A stretch of DNA of 12,573 nucleotides from a virus (Duplodnaviria; Heunggongvirae; Uroviricota; Caudoviricetes). Below the pieces are notes generated by a model. The model did not search any database. It had not been told where the DNA came from and worked only from the letters and a program-made list of their open reading frames with translations. Below are positions 6,532-12,573 of the stretch, piece after piece (positions within the stretch are counted from its first letter, which is position 1; each line of letters opens with the position of its first letter). Both the position numbers and the translations under genes were made by a program. The stretch is from positions 1-12,573 of the IMG/VR virus record IMGVR_UViG_2737471828_000010; one strand, written 5' to 3'.

Positions 6532-6584
6532 TTGTTATTCCTGAATCCTCTCTTCCGGGGCTGACATTGACTTATGGAGTACAT

Positions 6585-8306
6585 ATGGCCGTACAGATAT
6601 CTGGTGTACTGAAAGACGGTGCGGGTAAACCGGTGCAGGCGTGTTCAATTGAATTGCGGTCCAGAAAAACGAGTCCGACGGTGATTGTGCACATTGTGGC
6701 GGAATGTATTACGGACAGTAACGGGCGGTATTTAATCGAAGCCGAGCCAGGATTTTATGATGTTTTTCTTCTCCGTGAAGGGTGGGCTCCGGTAAAAGCC
6801 GGTGAGATTTATGTCACACCGACGGATAAGCCGGATACGCTGAATGCATTTCTGGATGCTCCCAAAGATGGCGATTTGCGTCCTGAGGTGATGAAACGCT
6901 TTGAGATAATGGTGAATACCGTTATTACGCTGTCTGAGCAGGTTACCCGTGATAAGGAGGCAACAGGCGCAGACGCCGCGGCAGCGGCAGAATCGGCGTC
7001 CGCTGCCCGGGAAAGTGAAAGGAAATCGCAGAATTATGAGGTGCAGTCTCAGAAAAATGCAGAGTCTGCAGCCGGAAGTGCGCAGGAGGCCGGACAATAT
7101 GCTGTGGAGGCTGCACAGGCAAGAGATAATACGCAGACCCTTGCTGATGCGGTGCAGAAAAATGCAGAGGTTGTGGCAGAACAGCGTCAGCAGGTGAATA
7201 TACTGGCTGCAGAAATGGCAGAAAATGCCGGACAGGTTCAGCAGGATAAACAGGATACTGAGCGGCTGCTGGAGCAGGCACAACAGGCAGCCAGTGAGTC
7301 TTCAGCCAGTGCCGTGGAGTCGGGGACGCATGCCAGCGAAGCTGCACAGAGTGCACGGCAGGTAAGCAGTGATTTACAGAAGACGGTAACGGCACGTAAT
7401 GAGGCAGAGGGTTTTGCCACAGAGGCCGCCAGTCGTGCAGAAGAGAGTGCACAGATAAAAGCGCAGACGGAGTCCGTGGCTCTGAATGTTCAGCATGTGG
7501 CAGACAGTGTTGTGGCTGTAAGCCAGTCTGTGGAGCTACAGGCCGGGCAGGTGCAGCAACTGGTCAGCCAGGCGGAAGACAGTGCCACGACAGCAGGTGA
7601 ACATGAGCAGGGGGCACTGAAGGCACTGGAGGAGGCCAGGGAGATTGCAAAAACGCCAGGACCACAGGGAGAGCCAGGACCGCAGGGGGAGACCGGCCCA
7701 CAGGGCCCCAGTGGTGAAAAGGGAGAGAAAGGGGACCGGGGCGATACCGGGCCTCAGGGAGAAAAAGGTGAGAAAGGCGATAAAGGTGATACCGGTGCCC
7801 GGGGAGCTACCGGCCCACAGGGGCCTCAGGGACCCATGGGACCCAGCGGAGTTTACCCGGAAGACGGGATAAAGACTGCGAAAAAATTCACGGGTATTCT
7901 GGCTCATGGTTTTATGTATTCTGACCTTCAGTTTCCGTTGCTGAAATATAACCACTACCTTGCCTGTGAAGACCACCCCGTTCCGGGTGCCGCGGGAAAT
8001 TATTCGTATGGTCTGATGTGGCAGGTTCCGACGAATGAGAATGTTTCAGGTCAGATTTTCCTTAACTGTATGGGACAGGCATTCATCAGGGCTTACAGCG
8101 GACTGGGTACCACTTCATGGTGGCAGTTTGCCGGTCGTCCGGTAGCCGGTGGTGTGGGGAGTTACCTGTTCTGTGCTTCTCAGGATGCGGTCAGTTACGG
8201 AGATGAACTGGCCGGAGAGCGGCTTGACCCGGTACAGTCAGGAATATGGATGGCCTGCGGAAATGCAGAAGCTGAAGAGAAAATGCTTTTTCTGAGGGTG
8301 AAATAA
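6585..8306 (+). CDS. stf: Side tail fiber protein (Stf-like) with an Ala/Gln/Glu-rich shaft, a collagen-like tract and a distinct C-terminal domain
   Basis: N-terminus [24 protein letters not shown]... resembles the lambda Stf N-terminus ([17 protein letters not shown]...). ATG 6585 has GGAG 5 nt upstream; the track start TTG 6567 is less likely. Residues ~125-360 form a low-complexity A/Q/E/S-rich region, and the C-terminal ~150 aa is a globular-looking domain I cannot assign. Confidence 0.8.
7659..7850 (+). repeat. Collagen-like Gly-X-Y repeat tract (64 residues) inside the tail fiber gene
   Basis: Uninterrupted G-X-Y periodicity, [64 protein letters not shown], visible in the DNA as repeated ggN-ccN-cag and ggN-gaN-aaa units. 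Confidence 0.85.
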
Positions 8307-8917
8307 TGGATACCAGGAATTCAGAAGCGGACGTGCGCAATGCCCGTTTTAATGAAGACGGCAGCATTACCTGTGAGGTGTTCATGGCAGACCGTTCTGA
8401 TGACAGTCATCGGGTATATGTACCTTATACTGCCAGAGCTTCAGACCCGACAGAATTCGGGTTAAGGCTCTGGTCAGGACTGATATCAGGGGACCTTGGT
8501 GAAGTCACGCCGTTTGTGGTGACAGAGGAGATACTGGAAAAGGCCAGAAATCAGAAATACGGTGAAATCAGTCGCTGGCGTGACAGCCAGGAGAACAGCA
8601 GTTTTGTTTTTGAATTCAGTGGTCATCGCTGGGATGCCGGAAAGGCGTCACAGTCCAGACTGACACCTGTTGTTGCGGTGGCAGGAAACGGGCTGTTGCC
8701 GGAGCATTTTTTCTGGACGGATGCGGATAATCAGGATGTCACTCTGACGCCGGAAGAGCTGATACAACTGGATACTGCGATGAATGCGGCGATGGTGATG
8801 CAGGGGTTTAAAATCCACGAACGCCAGCGCCGGATGAAAGAAGAAGTGGCAGGGCTGACCGCACTGCCGGATATTCGTGCGTATCCTGTTGGCTGGCCGG
8901 AGGGTGATGATGAGTAA
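8306..8917 (+). CDS. Putative tail fiber assembly protein (Tfa-like chaperone)
   Basis: 203 aa ORF whose ATG overlaps the fiber stop (TAATG at 8304..8308), with a GAGGGTG ribosome binding site upstream. Position immediately after the fiber gene and a C-terminal segment (...TPEELIQLDTAMNAAMVMQGFKIHERQRRMKEEVAGLTALPDIRAYPVGWPE) reminiscent of Tfa C-termini. Assigned by context plus weak similarity. Confidence 0.6.
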   Translation: MDTRNSEADVRNARFNEDGSITCEVFMADRSDDSHRVYVPYTARASDPTEFGLRLWSGLISGDLGEVTPFVVTEEILEKARNQKYGEISRWRDSQENSSFVFEFSGHRWDAGKASQSRLTPVVAVAGNGLLPEHFFWTDADNQDVTLTPEELIQLDTAMNAAMVMQGFKIHERQRRMKEEVAGLTALPDIRAYPVGWPEGDDE

Positions 8918-9290
8918 GTTCACCACACCGGCCATTCTGGAGATGCTGGATGATTACCGCTGGCGGCTGGTTGAGCCGTTTGAATTCTGGCTGACGGATA
9001 ACCCGGATGATGTGATTTATGTTCCGGAGGGATATGTGACGGACCTTGCCAGTGTGCCACGGCTTCTGTGGGCTCTGTTCCCGCCGCATGGTCGTTATGC
9101 GAAAGCGGCGATTATTCATGACTGGCTGTATGACAATGCCCTGCGCACGAAGGCGGAAGCGGACAGGATATTTCTGGATGCGATGACGGTGCTGGGAGTT
9201 CCACGCTGGCGCAGACGGTTGATGTATCTTGCGGTAAGGTTGTTCGGGAAAGGGAAATACAGCGACACGCAACAGGGGACCTGTTGCTGA
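8907..9290 (+). CDS. DUF1353-like small protein (tail-fiber-associated, function unknown)
   Basis: About 127 aa from the ATG pair at 8907/8910, with GGAGGG at 8899..8904, overlapping the stop of the preceding gene. Translation MMSKFTTPAILEMLDDYRWRLVEPFEFWLTD...YVTDLASVPRLLWALFPPHGRYAKAAIIHDWLY resembles the DUF1353 signature as I remember it. The track start GTG 8877 is less likely. Confidence 0.55.
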   Translation: MMSKFTTPAILEMLDDYRWRLVEPFEFWLTDNPDDVIYVPEGYVTDLASVPRLLWALFPPHGRYAKAAIIHDWLYDNALRTKAEADRIFLDAMTVLGVPRWRRRLMYLAVRLFGKGKYSDTQQGTCC

Positions 9291-9320
9291 AAAAAGTCTG
9301 CCATACAGATGTATGGCAGA
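9290..9320 (-). terminator. Leftward intrinsic terminator candidate (H1)
   Basis: Perfect stem CTGCCATA (9298..9305) / TATGGCAG (9312..9319), flanked on the + strand 5' side by six A's, which gives a 3' U-run on the - strand transcript. Confidence 0.5.
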
Positions 9321-9493
9321 AAAGGTATCCAAGGGAGAAGACACTGCAGTGCAGTATCCCTTATGGTCGGCGGTGATTATATAACCACAGAACGGCGCAT
9401 CAAACAGTTTTACGTACCAGTTGTTAAATTTGTGTATTATATCAAACAAATTGGTAACATGCTGCTGTGTGTAAATGTGATGTTAACATGGTG

Positions 9494-9529
9494 ATATGTG
9501 TTACTGACTGGTATTGCCTGTTCACCTGG
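9494..9529. repeat. ~36 nt repeat, copy 1 of 2 (atatgtgttactgactggtattgcctgttcacctgg)
   Basis: Matches 10569..10609, which carries a short internal insertion (ccacg/accacgt). Both copies are in the ORF-poor AT-rich region. Confidence 0.6.
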
Positions 9530-9564
9530 TCTGTGAAGATATGCAACATGGCCCATGTTGTAGC

Positions 9565-9597
9565 AAAAAAAGCCTGCCATACAGATATATGGCAGGC
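9565..9597 (-). terminator. Leftward intrinsic terminator candidate (H2, paralog of H1)
   Basis: Stem GCCTGCCATA / TATGGCAGGC with loop cagata, preceded on + by seven A's. On the - strand this reads as a GC stem followed by TTTTTTT. Same stem as H1 with a 1-nt loop difference. Confidence 0.6.
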
Positions 9598-9805
9598 AAA
9601 CGTCTGTTACGGGAAAACAAATGAATGTCGGGTATAGTACCCCCTTACTTGACTCCTTCACAATTATGCATCAATAATGAAACATATAAAGCATTTGTAT
9701 TTTCTTATTGCTGGTTTTGTGTATTGCGTCTCAAAACTAAATTATTTTATTACTCTCATAATAAATGAGGTAAATTATATATATAGTTATTTATTCTGTT
9801 TTTAT

Positions 9806-9834
9806 AAAAAGAAGCCCACAGATTACTGTGGGCT
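9806..9834 (-). terminator. Leftward intrinsic terminator candidate (H3)
   Basis: Stem AGCCCACAG / CTGTGGGCT with loop atta, preceded on + by tataaaaagaa (a U-rich tail on the - strand). Confidence 0.55.
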
Positions 9835-10085
9835 AAGCATTAGCATTATTTATATTAGTATAGTTACGGTTGCTGTAAGCATATTAGCTTACGGAAATGT
9901 TGATAACTCTGATGGGAATCACAAAAAAATACCAGTGCTGAAAATGACAGTACTGGTAAAAATATGATGAGTATTTGCAAAAAATACAACCGAATTGCTC
10001 TGTAAGGTTCACTACCTCTTTTATTCTACTATAAATTATAGTACATAGTTCTGTGATACTTATCACGCTGTATATTCATTGGTAT

Positions 10086-10110
10086 AAAAAGGCCCGTATG
10101 GATACGGGCC
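10086..10110 (-). terminator. Leftward intrinsic terminator candidate (H4)
   Basis: Stem GGCCCGTA / TACGGGCC with loop tgga, preceded on + by tataaaaa. Confidence 0.55.
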
Positions 10111-10207
10111 TGGCTTACGGGATAGGCTAACTGAGTAAGTAGGGTTATGGCTTACTCGCCGGCAGTATACCATATAAAACAACGGACAATTCTTTGCGGT
10201 AAATCAT

Positions 10208-10236
10208 AAAAAAAGACCCGTACCGTACGTGCGGGT
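10208..10236 (-). terminator. Leftward intrinsic terminator candidate (H5)
   Basis: Stem ACCCGTAC / GTGCGGGT (one non-Watson-Crick position) with loop cgtac, preceded on + by seven A's. Confidence 0.45.
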
Positions 10237-10354
10237 GTTAATTGCTGGTGAAGCTGTCAGAGGTGCATATTATTATAATAACGCTTGTAGACGTTTGTTA
10301 TTATTTATGCCCTCTATTACTGGTACTGTGATTTCCATCACAAAAATACATTAT

Positions 10355-10382
10355 AAAAAGAAAGCCCGCAGATTATGCGGGC
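10355..10382 (-). terminator. Leftward intrinsic terminator candidate (H6, paralog of H3)
   Basis: Stem GCCCGCA / TGCGGGC with loop gatta, preceded on + by tataaaaagaaa. Differs from H3 by a compensatory base-pair change (A-T in H3, G-C in H6). Confidence 0.55.
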
Positions 10383-10401
10383 AATAGCTTATGCATGAGA
10401 T

Positions 10402-10426
10402 GAACGACTCCGGGTCGTTTATTTTT
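10402..10426 (+). terminator. Weak rightward hairpin with T-run (possible + strand terminator)
   Basis: Stem AACGAC / GTCGTT with loop tccgg, followed by tatttttc. Short, AT-rich stem. Confidence 0.3.
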
Positions 10427-10568
10427 CTTAATAAGAAGGACTACATTTATATTCTACTATGTAAGTATGGTATTGATGATGTGAAGTATATCTCAAATTA
10501 ACGCAATAAGAAAAAGCAACAACCCATTTCTGAATGTGAGAGAACTGCTAATATAGCAATATGTGTTC

Positions 10569-10609
10569 CTGACTGGTACCACGTATTGCCTGTTCCAGGA
10601 GCATATTTG
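10569..10609. repeat. ~36 nt repeat, copy 2 of 2 (atatgtgttcctgactggtaccacgtattgcctgttccagg)
   Basis: Direct repeat of 9494..9529. Confidence 0.6.
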
Positions 10610-10665
10610 CCTGGATTCAGATTGCTCGTAATTCACCACGGCTATAAATCGTAAAGAAAATTGCA

Positions 10666-10718
10666 GCACGCCCTATGCAAGAACGTGCCACGGCTGGCTG
10701 GCAAACTTTCGATAGTGC
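10666..10718. repeat. ~50 nt imperfect direct repeat, left copy (hairpin with loop tatgcaaga ... cgatagtgc), left flank of the peptidase cassette
   Basis: gcacg-ccctatgcaagaa-cgtgc-cacggctggctggcaaactttcgatagtgc aligns with 12269..12321 (first 15 nt tatgcaagaacgtgc identical; roughly 80 percent identity over the remainder). Confidence 0.65.
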
Positions 10719-10998
10719 GAGTATTGAATGATTTCCAGTCGTTATTGATTCTACGCATTAATTTATGAACAAACTACTTATCTGTGGTCTTTCGGTCTGT
10801 AATAGGGGCCCTGTCTGAAATGGAGTTTCAGGATTAAGCGATATCGTACTCACCCTTAGTCCCACCTGATAAATCTGGAGAACGGAAGCACTGCCAGATG
10901 ATGGTGGTGGCTACAATTACTCACACTCAATATTCGGAGCAATCACGTACATCATCACGATGCTAGGAATGCGGAGTTTGATGACTGTCCAGTGATGT

Positions 10999-11029
10999 AA
11001 AAAGAGACCCCGGCGTAGTAGCCGAGGTC
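10999..11029 (-). terminator. Leftward intrinsic terminator candidate for the peptidase gene
   Basis: Stem GACCCCGGC / GCCGAGGTC (one mismatch) with loop gtagta, 22 nt downstream of the - strand stop at 11051..11053. On the - strand it is followed by tctcTTTTT. Confidence 0.5.
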
Positions 11030-11050
11030 CTCAATCAGAAACTACAATAT

Positions 11051-12055
11051 TCACTGAGTGCCTTCATCTGGTTGCTCTGCTGGTAAGGTTCCAGCCTCTT
11101 CTTCAATTTCCGCATGTTTTCCATCGCTTCCCTGGACAGGTTCATCCCTTGGCGGTTCTGCTCTTCCTGAATTTTGGTCAGAGATTTCATCTCCTTCCTG
11201 AATTCTGCTGTTGTCATGGGAATCTTCCTCTGCGTTAGTTGTTTCATATTGTTTTTTAGGAGTTAAATCTTTAATCACCGGTTTGTCGAAGATAGAGATT
11301 TCGCCTGACGAAATCATCTCACCAAGAACTTCGTACAGGTTGGCTGCAAAGTCTGTAGGACTCTCAACATGGTTGAATAGTTCCCTCGCCTCTTTACGGT
11401 CTATCACAAAACCATGGGCTGGATATCCAGCGATCAACTTGCCTAAGGAGCTTTCCTTAAGATTTTTCGAGTGACTATTCAAACGCTCCCCATAGGAAAG
11501 CGCTATGTTCATTGCTCGTTGATGCTCCCCGAGTTTGATGGGGTCTATCTGTGAGGCCATCGGCGATATGATTGCTTCAGTAAGCTTAGCAGCAATATCT
11601 GCAGACATCTTCGTGCTAATTTGGTTTCTGTACTTTATATCAAGTACGTATGATCTAAAGGTCGAAATAGCGCACTCTTTTATTTCATCAATCGCCGTTG
11701 CGATAACAAGGCCCGAGCTCAATTCGCCGATCTCATCATTTTTCTTAAGTTGGATGTCTAGAGGACCAAGCTCACCCATATCACCAATCACGAGCTTATG
11801 AGCGGCGACAGCCATCAAGGTTCCAGCACTTTTGCAAGGGCCAACAACTAGAACGGTGATGTGTTCATAGTTGTGTTGCAAAGCGCGGCCAATTCTATAT
11901 CCTGCGCTGGGATCACCGCCATAGGTAGCGACGCAAAAAAGAACATTTTTTTGTAAACCATGGTTAGTTTTTCTTTCTTTAATCGCTTTGGTGATGTCGT
12001 GATGACCAGAGCGGTGAACATCGCCTATGTATACGTAAACGTCTGTATCTTGCAT
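11051..12055 (-). CDS. Stand-alone ClpP/SppA-fold serine peptidase-like protein (S49/SDH-like) with an acidic low-complexity C-terminal tail
   Basis: 334 aa ORF with ribosome binding site AGGGA 5 nt upstream of the ATG (- strand). N-terminal ~220 aa follows the ClpP-fold pattern: ATYGGDPSAGYRIGRAL echoes the ClpP NSPGGSVTAG segment, and VVGPCKSAGTLMAVAAHK echoes the ClpP/SppA nucleophile segment (GQAASMG type), giving a candidate catalytic Ser in CKSAG. The last ~70 aa are Asp/Glu-rich and low complexity. No His in the position of the ClpP catalytic His, so a Ser-Lys dyad (SppA-like) is possible. Confidence 0.6.
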   Translation of the reverse strand: MQDTDVYVYIGDVHRSGHHDITKAIKERKTNHGLQKNVLFCVATYGGDPSAGYRIGRALQHNYEHITVLVVGPCKSAGTLMAVAAHKLVIGDMGELGPLDIQLKKNDEIGELSSGLVIATAIDEIKECAISTFRSYVLDIKYRNQISTKMSADIAAKLTEAIISPMASQIDPIKLGEHQRAMNIALSYGERLNSHSKNLKESSLGKLIAGYPAHGFVIDRKEARELFNHVESPTDFAANLYEVLGEMISSGEISIFDKPVIKDLTPKKQYETTNAEEDSHDNSRIQEGDEISDQNSGRAEPPRDEPVQGSDGKHAEIEEEAGTLPAEQPDEGTQ

Positions 12056-12324: not shown

Positions 12325-12573
12325 TTAGTGAACAAACCACTCGTCAGCAGACTCCCAGGTATCTTTCAGAGTTTCCTGCACAAAAGTTTTAGCTGAATCT
12401 TTATCGGCTGTGCGCGTAACAGAAAGGCCATCGTTGCTGGTGGCTTTTACGATCACCTCTACATCGTCATAACGCTTACTGATGCGTCGGGTTAATTCTT
12501 CCTTTAACGCATCCACAGCACTGGTTGGCATTTTAGTCATTTTTTCTTTGGCTATGCAGATTTCAATACGCAT
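12325..12573 (-). CDS. dinI: DinI-family protein (DNA damage-inducible protein I-like, prophage-encoded)
   Basis: 82 aa: [37 protein letters not shown]...[15 protein letters not shown]. Start and C-terminal WESAD-WFV motif match E. coli DinI as I recall it (MRIEVTIAK...ETWESADDWFVSE). The start codon is the last three bases of the window, so the promoter is outside it. Confidence 0.85.

Follow-up and report, generated by a model that had tools for sequence, protein, structure and literature searches.

The window, by which we mean the whole 12,573-nt stretch of prophage DNA that was analysed, carries at 8910..9290 (+ strand) a gene of the DUF1353 family whose product is very probably active as a phospholipase A2 (PLA2), as predicted from its kinship to TtaP, the typhoid-toxin-associated phospholipase A2 of Salmonella Typhi. 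The preliminary description of this DNA had left the function of the gene unknown. That statement is outdated, since the window protein is 62-63% identical to an enzyme with demonstrated PLA2 activity and conserves its catalytic residues. On a tentative reading, the product is a small soluble cytoplasmic PLA2 of the DUF1353/TtaP class, which is made late and would act when the phage leaves the cell.

The DUF1353 gene and the tail genes upstream

The ORF extends from 8877 to 9290 on the + strand and contains in-frame ATG codons at 8907 and 8910. A Shine-Dalgarno sequence, GGAGGG (8899..8904, + strand), lies within the 3' end of the preceding gene, and its GGAGG (8899-8903) is spaced 3 nt from the first ATG and 6 nt from the second. 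The gene had been placed at 8907-9290. It is real, but that start is at most 3 nt off, and ATG 8910 is likelier because RefSeq starts the identical gene (WP_047624642.1, locus L001) at the equivalent of 8910 and because relatives begin with MS[KR]FTTP. The 126-aa product is thus preferred over the 127-aa form. The dN/dS ratio against three orthologues was 0.08-0.09 (dS 0.9-1.0); the ORF is coding far beyond chance and is under strong purifying selection. No transmembrane or signal segment was found in the protein (Kyte-Doolittle, 19-residue window, maximum 0.8).

The DUF1353 assignment in the preliminary description proved correct. A profile search matched PF07087 with an E value of 1.8e-33 and 114.4 bits (curated gathering cut-off, 22.5 bits), covering profile positions 1-91 of 91 and residues 19-110, and the ORF is kept in related prophages, so the grounds on which the proposal was to be refuted do not apply. 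The family is large, with 11,927 cluster representatives related to the window protein. In 50,697 phage genomes, megablast found no match to the region, whereas tblastn matched 288 phage records, all below 60% identity. A scan of genome contigs yielded 11 DUF1353 loci, none of them enterobacterial and none of them TtaP. Single-protein scans of viral contigs yielded 8 loci with the homologue of phage Sf11 and 12 with that of phage AH02, which are too few for a census. NCBIfam held no family for the DUF1353 protein or its upstream neighbor, the DUF4376 protein, and PADLOC gave no match for these two proteins, for the SDH protease or for ORF 9677-9967.

Two tail genes precede the DUF1353 gene on the + strand. 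The side tail-fibre gene (6567..8306; RefSeq start in L001 equivalent to about 6585) encodes a prophage tail fibre N-terminal domain followed by collagen-like repeats (Pfam phage_tail_N, 3.3e-40; Collagen, 3.8e-10) and matches PHROG tail-fibre families. The gene after it (8306..8917) encodes a 203-aa DUF4376 protein, a putative tail-fibre chaperone (Pfam DUF4376, E = 3.3e-19; phrog_1141, 1.4e-70). The preliminary description had called this gene Tfa-like. Its place after the fibre gene and its overlap with the DUF1353 gene were seen correctly, but it belongs to DUF4376, another tail-fibre chaperone family, and the Caudo_TAP profile of Pfam matched neither its product nor the DUF1353 protein at E ≤ 0.01. 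A chaperone role of DUF4376 proteins is supported by experiment, as gp27 of Alteromonas phage V22 is required for active fibres (PMC7289586). The 125-aa gp29 of the same phage, encoded two genes past the DUF4376 chaperone, was considered as a DUF1353 protein and rejected, as it does not belong to the family. In the window, the DUF1353 start overlaps the stop codon TAA (8915-8917) of the DUF4376 gene by 8 nt, as ATGAGTAA, and the two genes are translationally coupled, as had been proposed.

Kinship to TtaP and predicted catalytic residues

TtaP (STY1887/t1110) showed PLA2 activity in a fluorogenic assay and by lipid HPLC; its catalytic residues are H70, D71 and D85, the D85A substitution abolishes the activity, and the protein is conserved at a level of at least 89.6% (Gartly 2024, J Biol Chem, PMC11525133). 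Ten Salmonella clusters of 124-126 aa were considered as TtaP, and none was TtaP by name or accession; the sequence was supplied by IMG/VR loci in which a DUF1353 ORF adjoins CdtB. In locus L078, the DUF1353 ORF (125 aa) is flanked by genes for a 269-aa CdtB and a 180-aa GH108 muramidase, and with the adjoining 242-aa Pertussis_S1 and 137-aa Pertussis_S2S3 genes they make up a complete typhoid-toxin islet. This ORF showed 63% identity and 79% similarity to the window protein over 123 aa, and the commonest islet allele, present on at least 1000 Salmonella contigs, showed 62% identity; the E values for the islet ORFs were 7e-57 and 2e-56. From the islet content, the gene lengths and the published conservation, we infer that the DUF1353 ORFs of complete islets are the orthologue of S. 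Typhi TtaP.

The window protein and TtaP each consist of a single DUF1353 domain of 125-126 aa, align with no internal gap up to residue 113, and carry H70, D71 and D85 at identical positions. Codons CAT GAC at 9117..9122 (+ strand) encode His70-Asp71, the predicted catalytic histidine with its adjacent aspartate, and codon GAC at 9162..9164 (+ strand) encodes Asp85, the predicted dyad partner. All three residues were invariant across 60 close relatives. Among about 150 diverse representatives (37-99% identical to the query, mostly 42-60%), H70 was kept in 149/150, D71 in 149/150 and D85 in 145/151. Because of its identity to a proven PLA2, the window protein most likely cuts host membrane lipids. 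Both proteins lack a signal peptide and structural disulfides; the Cys residues of the window protein are restricted to positions 125-126, so that the disulfides of group XIV PLA2 enzymes are absent, as they are in TtaP.

The two proteins differ in their C-terminal tails and in their surroundings, and the activity of the window protein is a prediction. The gene for TtaP belongs to a toxin islet of five genes, lies beside that of the muramidase TtsA and is cotranscribed with cdtB, whereas the window gene lies in the late tail operon of a lambdoid prophage, overlapping the DUF4376 gene. No Exo_endo_phos, GH108 or pertussis-like gene was found among the neighbors of the window gene by Pfam and annotation. 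With a fibre gene, a DUF4376 gene and AT-rich cargo as its neighbors, the window gene is a prophage paralogue of ttaP and not the islet orthologue.

We also compared the family with the group XIV secreted PLA2 enzymes of Streptomyces violaceoruber (1LWB/1FAZ), Tuber borchii (TbSP1, 4AUP) and Saccharothrix (8K1W). An hhalign comparison of 99 diverse DUF1353 sequences with the four solved group XIV sequences gave a probability of 88.2% and an E value of 3e-6 over 52 columns, as against 5.6% and 0.0068 when the profile was shallower. The alignment paired the HD motifs, the distal dyad aspartates and the AVRxFG motifs of the C-terminal helix, with H70-D71 on H64-D65 and D85 on D85 of the Streptomyces enzyme. 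The conserved T44-D45 may be the counterpart of Asp43/Leu44, which make up the Ca2+ loop of that enzyme. The proteins are of similar size (about 120 aa), but overall identity is below 20%, and the window protein lacks a secretion signal, a propeptide and all four conserved Cys residues. Its N-terminal beta-sheet (residues 10-45) has no counterpart in those enzymes. Whole-fold searches made no connection between the two. Foldseek against the PDB found nothing significant with models of pLDDT 79.6 and 90.0; the best PLA2 match of the former was 8k1w (E = 3.3, TM 0.36), and PLA2 was absent from the top 50 PDB matches of the latter. Against BFVD, only DUF1353 proteins were found. An HMM of 60 close relatives run against all PDB sequences gave only chance matches to methionine aminopeptidase 2, with PLA2 absent. 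Since confirmation at the fold level failed, the PLA2 link rests on sequence and profile evidence together with the published experiments.

The protein also matches phrog_1158, labelled "tail assembly chaperone" (E = 4.7e-50), a label carried by several phage records and many GenBank records of DUF1353. A noncatalytic chaperone for tail or fibre assembly would suit a gene directly behind the fibre and chaperone genes, and the place just downstream of a side tail-fibre gene, with late co-expression, is shared with lambda Tfa and the Caudo_TAP proteins. However, sequence or profile similarity to these proteins is absent, and a dedicated chaperone, the DUF4376 protein, is already encoded and is the more plausible holder of that role. 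The label is seemingly positional; the five full-text papers mentioning DUF1353 contained no experiment in its support. The near-invariance of H70, D71 and D85, the enzymatic nature of the closest studied homologue, and the many members with no tail gene nearby, including those in lysis cassettes, likewise fit poorly with a nonenzymatic form of the role in fibre assembly that had been suggested. We therefore regard this reading as very improbable.

The gene at the edge of the AT-rich cargo

The DUF1353 gene is the last gene of the late operon ahead of the AT-rich cargo and ends right at the switch in composition, both as first described, with G+C falling from about 0.55 to 0.30-0.40. In detail, G+C was 0.54-0.56 within the gene, between 9300 and about 10,500 it was 0.29-0.42, and homology with other E. 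coli prophages ended at about 9323. A small hairpin (9269..9287; 8 bp, 3-nt loop) lies in the last seven codons; it is real and appears in minimum-free-energy folds, although 1.2 ± 1.2 such hairpins are expected by chance per window. The preliminary description had noted this hairpin by itself; it is half of a repeated two-hairpin module of about 55 nt. The second half of the first copy is the terminator-like hairpin H1 (9297..9320, - strand; 10 bp followed by U6), which lies where the homology to other prophages gives out. This leftward terminator, noted before, was recovered by the terminator scan at 9320-9297 and is part of repeat D1. The second copy of the module (9543..9597, - strand) comprises a small stem (9544-9550/9554-9560) and a terminator-like hairpin (9572-9597), and the small stem shows a compensatory G-C to U-A change between the copies. 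Putative - strand RNAs of 75-90 nt would run from 9368 to 9290 and from about 9655 to 9566. Rfam on 8800-11200 gave nothing at gathering score.

The preliminary description had raised the idea that the gene is itself a small moron. As a lysogenic-conversion gene, it would serve the bacterial host by remodelling of its own membranes, vesiculation or secretion, as TtaP may do. It does lie at the prophage end beside the cargo, and its paralogue TtaP has been domesticated in a virulence islet. There, ttaP is transcribed from a PhoPQ-activated promoter (PMC11525133). Many Salmonella prophages have a gap of about 110 nt between the DUF4376 and DUF1353 genes, which leaves room for a promoter of the gene's own. 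In the window, however, the gene shares 8 nt with the late gene before it, a scan of 8200-8906 revealed no promoter-like site on the + strand, and the G+C content resembles that of the tail genes and not that of the cargo. In addition, DUF1353 genes are widely distributed among strictly lytic phages, for example Sf11, the jumbo phages and Arash. A self-expressed moron thus fits poorly, and a role in the service of the host is improbable.

DUF1353 genes in lysis cassettes and behind fibre genes

Across phages, DUF1353 genes occur in two settings, namely, behind fibre and DUF4376 genes or within lysis cassettes. Shigella phage Sf11 has the order endolysin, holin, Rz spanin and DUF1353, and Fusobacterium phage phiRTG5 has endolysin, a hypothetical gene, DUF1353 and holin. 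In Pseudomonas phage Cygsa01, the DUF1353 gene overlaps the endolysin start, and in Pseudomonas phage AH02, a holin-led cassette ends with a DUF1353 gene annotated as "phospholipase". DUF1353 as a replacement for the o-spanin in Sf11-like phages was considered and rejected, because an embedded Rz1 with the lipobox LLLSLAGC was found. An endolysin or cell-wall peptidase gene lay directly or closely upstream in 31 of 65 diverse IMG/VR loci, 13 of these 31 also having a holin gene downstream. Two large clusters, of 16 and 13 related loci, swell the count of 31. In the larger one, a gene for a baseplate spike comes next, and the M15 peptidase there could therefore be a tail lysin. The ttaP gene itself adjoins the gene of the phage-type muramidase TtsA.

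These relatives, together with the family membership, the conserved catalytic residues, the kinship to TtaP and the operon position, support the account of a PLA2 acting at exit, which we tentatively propose. The gene would share the transcript of the late tail genes, its translation would be coupled to that of the DUF4376 fibre chaperone, and its product, having no export signal, would stay latent in the cell. Opening of the envelope by holin and endolysin would give it access to the envelope lipids. The His70/Asp85 dyad, aided by Asp71, would then cleave the sn-2 acyl ester of phosphatidylethanolamine and phosphatidylglycerol, producing lysophospholipid and free fatty acid, and the protein would serve as an accessory that disrupts the membranes, chiefly the outer one, during lysis and the release of particles. 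A lipolytic accessory of lysis is known in the LysB esterase of mycobacteriophages. For the lytic cassette of phage WO, a patatin-like PLA2 has been proposed (PMC9203015). Both are phage lipid hydrolases encoded beside holin and endolysin genes and thought to breach an outer lipid layer, and by analogy the DUF1353 protein may do likewise. However, LysB (an alpha/beta hydrolase) and the patatin belong to unrelated folds and families, and the window gene lies outside any lysis cassette, the lysis genes of this prophage being located beyond the window.

Against the account of a PLA2 acting at exit, a ttaP deletion in S. Typhi gave no envelope or secretion phenotype (PMC11525133), and the window gene is coupled to the fibre chaperone. 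The 8-nt overlap recurs in at least 9 related loci, and the triad of fibre, DUF4376 and DUF1353 genes was found in 40 of 95 related loci and in the same order in a P1-like plasmid, in Francisella KIRK and in a Helicobacter podovirus, which are very distant. DUF4376-DUF1353 and Caudo_TAP-DUF1353 fusion proteins are reported in a CDART listing (Gartly Table S1, PMC11525133); no second Pfam domain was found in ten longer DUF1353 proteins (162-329 aa), so these fusions were not reproduced. Coupling, triad and fusions point to a fibre-linked role. The same PLA2 could accordingly act at entry. It could travel on the virion, either attached to the DUF4376 chaperone or "cap" on the far tip of the side tail fibre or in some other way, and could loosen outer-membrane lipids locally during adsorption or penetration; the PLA2 carried in the capsid of parvoviruses offers a parallel. 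Transient capping of fibres has been proposed for DUF4376 chaperones (PMC10579305). Furthermore, Gp082 of Salmonella phage Arash, a DUF1353 homologue 45% identical to the window protein, was detected in particle preparations by LC-MS/MS (87.5% coverage, 103 spectra). However, 116 of 272 proteins turned up in that preparation, RNA polymerase and ribonucleotide reductases among them, so the detection of Gp082 there is no proof that it resides in the virion. In enterobacteria, the outer membrane has LPS and not phospholipid in its outer leaflet, so a PLA2 would not obviously reach its substrate from outside. Many relatives also have holin, endolysin and spanin genes as neighbors and lack a nearby fibre gene. 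We therefore hold action at entry to be possible but rather unlikely, and slightly favor action at exit.

Gram-negative phage lysis is taught as the work of holin, endolysin and spanin (or disruptin), and fibre modules are taught as fibre plus chaperone. It is plausible, if short of probable, that DUF1353 represents a very large and hitherto unrecognized group of phospholipases made by phages (the clusters related to the window protein number about 12,000 at 50% identity), labelled as "tail assembly chaperone" in phage databases, that attack host membrane lipids as a separate envelope-breaching step, whether through the fibre-tip chaperone when the phage enters or as a fourth, lipid-directed component of Gram-negative lysis beside holin, endolysin and spanin, and that the typhoid-toxin islet took its muramidase and lipase from such a phage module. 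The practical interest of small disulfide-free PLA2 enzymes has been stated by the TtaP authors (PMC11525133). The question is directly testable, since the DUF1353 gene of this E. coli prophage is easily deleted and assayed. If the proposal is true, a widespread database label would be corrected, the origin of the orphan fifth gene of the typhoid-toxin islet would be explained and its role there suggested, and a conserved, catalytically intact PLA2 found in the lysis modules and the fibre modules of very distant phages would bring lipid degradation into the scheme of phage lysis and fibre function.

Gene model and chaperone partner

The open reading frame at 8877..9290 (+) contains candidate ATG starts at 8907 and 8910. 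A GGAGG motif (8899-8903) is located 6 nt before the ATG at 8910 compared with 3 nt before that at 8907, the RefSeq start of the equivalent gene is the counterpart of 8910, and the relatives begin with MS[KR]FTTP. The gene was therefore taken as 8910..9290, encoding 126 aa, so that the end given in the preliminary description was kept and its start at 8907 was not. The product showed a full-length match to Pfam DUF1353 (E 1.8e-33), in agreement with the family assignment in the preliminary description. The frame is clearly coding: measured on orthologues at a dS close to 1, dN/dS is 0.08-0.09. An exhaustive search recovered 11,927 related cluster representatives; 3,887 reached E ≤ 1e-10. Neither a hydrophobic N-terminus nor a transmembrane segment was found in the protein.

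As had been noted earlier, the start of the gene and the stop of its upstream neighbour, 8306..8917 (+), overlap, as ATGAGTAA. The upstream product matched DUF4376 (E 3.3e-19) and gave no Caudo_TAP match, which ruled out a lambda-type Tfa. A DUF4376 protein of Alteromonas phage V22, gp27, is needed for active fibres, and DUF4376 proteins are thus fibre chaperones by experiment (PMC7289586); for related chaperones, transient capping of the fibre tip has been suggested (PMC7289586, PMC10579305). The earlier label of "Tfa-like" fibre chaperone is therefore reasonable as to function and wrong as to family. Overall, the preliminary observation of this gene was confirmed and its interpretation partly supported.

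Prophage setting and the hairpin module

The right arm of a lambdoid prophage makes up the window; in it, a side tail fibre gene (6567-8306, +) comes after homologues of the tail genes M, L, K, I, and J. In the fibre, collagen-like Gly-X-Y repeats (residues ~365-423) follow a prophage tail-fibre N-terminal domain, and the C-terminal part could be placed in no family. In related prophages, this DUF4376/DUF1353 pair is combined with other fibres, such as SASA-esterase fibres (locus L029). A prophage of E. coli GXU-23-25-310 (L001) is 98.6% identical with the same gene order, and its tail genes are followed by an SDH-type Clp-fold protease, a DinI-like gene, a tyrosine integrase, and then chromosomal dusA. 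The prophage is lambdoid and integrated at dusA. In the window, the cargo protease, an SDH-type Clp-fold serine protease, is at 11051-12055 (-); it matched phrog_21683 (7.9e-198), gave weak Pfam and NCBIfam matches, and had no match in PADLOC. The stretch 12325-12573 (-) was considered together with it; the DinI-like gene, integrase, and dusA come after the protease in L001.

As described previously, the DUF1353 gene ends at a switch to AT-rich DNA: G+C falls from 0.54-0.56 over the gene to 0.29-0.42 past 9300, and sequence shared with other E. coli prophages stops at ~9323. The AT-rich stretch extends for 1.7 kb (9300-11050) and holds no ORF with a match to any family; its sole RefSeq annotation is a 108-nt "capsid protein" fragment (~10661-10768). 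One hydrophobic 96-aa ORF (9677-9967), with a promoter-like site at 9649-9678 (+), had no match in Pfam, PHROG, NCBIfam, or PADLOC. Four terminator-like hairpins are located on the - strand of this stretch (9320, 9597, 9834, and 10111), and a scan of both strands over 8200-10200 gave seven, against 1.2 expected from shuffles.

The short hairpin that had been noted inside the 3' end of the gene (9269..9287) is real, with the stem 9269-9276/9280-9287. Perfect 8-bp hairpins are expected by chance 1.2 ± 1.2 times in 12.5 kb, and one alone is at chance level. It is not a lone hairpin, however, and forms half of a repeated bipartite module of ~55 nt, in which the small hairpin and the large hairpin H1 (9297..9320) are joined by a run of A6-7; H1 reads as an intrinsic terminator on the - strand. 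Copies were found at 9269-9320 and 9543-9597, with one more in the related prophage remnant L013 (9523-9575). Between the two window copies, the small stem changes from G-C to U-A with pairing kept. The first copy supplies the final seven codons and stop of the ORF, which fits the hypervariable C-terminal tails of the DUF1353 family. On the - strand, U6-7 comes directly after the large hairpin; on the + strand there is no such U-tract.

In L013, module copies lie directly behind the DUF1353 gene, at 6774-6897, and ~350 nt past a YadA-like gene and the next hypothetical gene, at 9523-9575, so that they bracket cargo genes. The loop and centre of H1 read CAGATG in the window (9306-9311) and CATCTG in L001 (13306-13311), a hairpin-loop inversion. 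In 9290-9403 and 9566-9690 (-), promoter-like sites on the - strand at 9403-9376 (10/12 matches) and 9690-9663 (9/12) are each upstream of a - strand terminator; two small RNAs of ~75-90 nt could arise from them, close to where the DUF1353 gene ends. Promoter-like sites were no more numerous than in shuffled sequence, and Rfam gave only subthreshold hits.

Probable phospholipase identity

TtaP is a 125-aa DUF1353 protein of the typhoid-toxin islet of Salmonella Typhi (Gartly et al. 2024, PMC11525133). When this phospholipase A2 was expressed in E. coli, the lysates cut a fluorogenic sn-2 substrate on par with bee-venom PLA2, and in them PE/PG was depleted and free fatty acids were increased; its catalytic residues are H70, D71, and D85, and D85A abolished the activity (PMC11525133). 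HHpred linked TtaP to the group XIV PLA2 structures 1LWB and 4AUP, and Salmonella prophage DUF1353 proteins resemble TtaP, other DUF1353 proteins being likely PLA2 too (PMC11525133).

A CdtB-like ORF lies upstream in 15 of 80 IMG/VR loci with a relative of the window protein. Locus L078 is a complete typhoid-toxin islet: a 125-aa DUF1353 ORF lies between a 269-aa Exo_endo_phos protein and a 180-aa GH108 + PG_binding_3 muramidase, next to a 242-aa Pertussis_S1 and a 137-aa Pertussis_S2S3 protein, lengths that fit the paper's supplementary table. The window protein showed 63% identity and 79% similarity to this DUF1353 ORF (E 7e-57) and 62% identity to the commonest islet allele, present on at least 1000 Salmonella contigs; alignment with the islet ORFs is ungapped up to residue 113. 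H70, D71, and D85 have identical numbering in the window protein and TtaP and are invariant in 60 close relatives. Few positions are better conserved than these three in 150 diverse representatives, whose identity to the query is 37-99%, mostly 42-60% (H70 149/150, D71 149/150, D85 145/151). Thus, the gene, whose function had been called unknown, most likely encodes a phospholipase A2, and from homology it is highly probable that the protein has this biochemistry.

We also compared a profile of 99 diverse DUF1353 sequences with a profile built from four solved group XIV enzymes. They matched with 88% probability (E 3e-6), and the two HD motifs, the two D85 positions, and the C-terminal AVRxFG helix and its group XIV counterpart were aligned; a shallower DUF1353 profile reached only E 0.0068, and a plain HMM search of PDB sequences gave no match. 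In AlphaFold models, four helices come after an N-terminal sheet of four strands (pLDDT 79.6 from close relatives, 90.0 from the diverse alignment). Neither model had a significant Foldseek match among 350,542 PDB chains, the lone PLA2 in the output being 8k1w (E 3.3, TM 0.36, poorer model). This agrees with the remark that only the three-helix catalytic core resembles group XIV enzymes (PMC11525133). The DUF1353 family appears to have no solved structure. Group XIV PLA2s have disulfides, whereas cysteines in the window protein occur only at 125-126, so these bonds are absent, as in TtaP. On sequence grounds, we filed the protein as a putative TtaP-class DUF1353 PLA2, neither a group XIV enzyme nor an islet-gene orthologue.

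Genomic contexts and role of the enzyme

The gene is rare in E. coli, where DNA comparison placed it in 50 of 5,426 complete genomes, and common in Salmonella. Among 95 close-relative loci, a homologue of the window's DUF4376 gene is directly upstream in 40, overlapping by a few nt or ~110 nt apart; 15 are toxin islets, and 5 have a SASA-esterase fibre protein upstream. The order fibre, DUF4376, DUF1353 recurs in a P1-like E. coli plasmid, Francisella phage KIRK, and a Helicobacter pylori podovirus, and a CDART table lists DUF4376-DUF1353 and Caudo_TAP-DUF1353 fusions (PMC11525133). DUF1353 therefore follows the DUF4376 chaperone and does not always accompany one fibre type, the question raised earlier. 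A fibre- or virion-borne enzyme acting at entry is the second most likely role, after one in lysis, at a fairly low probability. The sole virion evidence is a homologue of Salmonella phage Arash detected by mass spectrometry, in a preparation where 116 of the 272 phage proteins were present as well.

More distant relatives also occur in another setting, the lysis cassette. Shigella phage Sf11 has endolysin, holin, Rz, and DUF1353 genes with Rz1 embedded, so the lipase there is an extra component. The order is endolysin, hypothetical gene, DUF1353, holin in Fusobacterium phage phiRTG5. In Pseudomonas phages, the DUF1353 gene and the start of the endolysin gene overlap close to a GDSL lipase (Cygsa01), or DUF1353 closes a cassette opened by holin and is annotated "phospholipase" (AH02). 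An endolysin or M15 peptidase is upstream in 31 of 65 diverse IMG/VR loci, with a holin also downstream in 13 of the 31; two groups of related loci inflate the count of 31. In one of these clusters (L143-L193, 16 related metagenomic phage loci), DUF1353 follows a Peptidase_M15 gene and a Phage_base_V baseplate-spike gene comes next in 13 of the 16, those with a downstream ORF in the fetched sequence; this order could mark where a P2-like lysis cassette ends, or it could be a tail-associated pair of envelope-degrading enzymes.

PHROG 1158 is labelled "tail assembly chaperone", and phage records widely carry this name or "tail assembly protein". Since TtaP has PLA2 activity and many members of the family sit in lysis cassettes, the label looks positional and is probably wrong; a chaperone without catalysis is a very improbable role. 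The DUF1353 activity was published in 2024, with prophage homologues mentioned (PMC11525133). In the papers searched for DUF1353, we found no study of the enzyme's use to a phage and no mention of the fibre/lysis-module split or the PHROG 1158 label.

The late tail operon of the window ends with the DUF1353 gene, which is coupled translationally to the chaperone gene; a moron benefiting the host is an unlikely description of the DUF1353 gene. Asp71 would aid metal binding and transition-state stabilisation, the metal-binding role being one that we presume from the Streptomyces enzyme. His70, oriented by Asp85, would activate water, and the sn-2 ester of PE or PG would be cleaved, following the dyad roles in the group XIV mechanism as summed up by Gartly et al. 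(PMC11525133). The product would be cytoplasmic and presumably harmless, like TtaP, until its substrate is reached. We tentatively favour a role in lysis, in which the lipase may break the membranes after the action of holin and endolysin.
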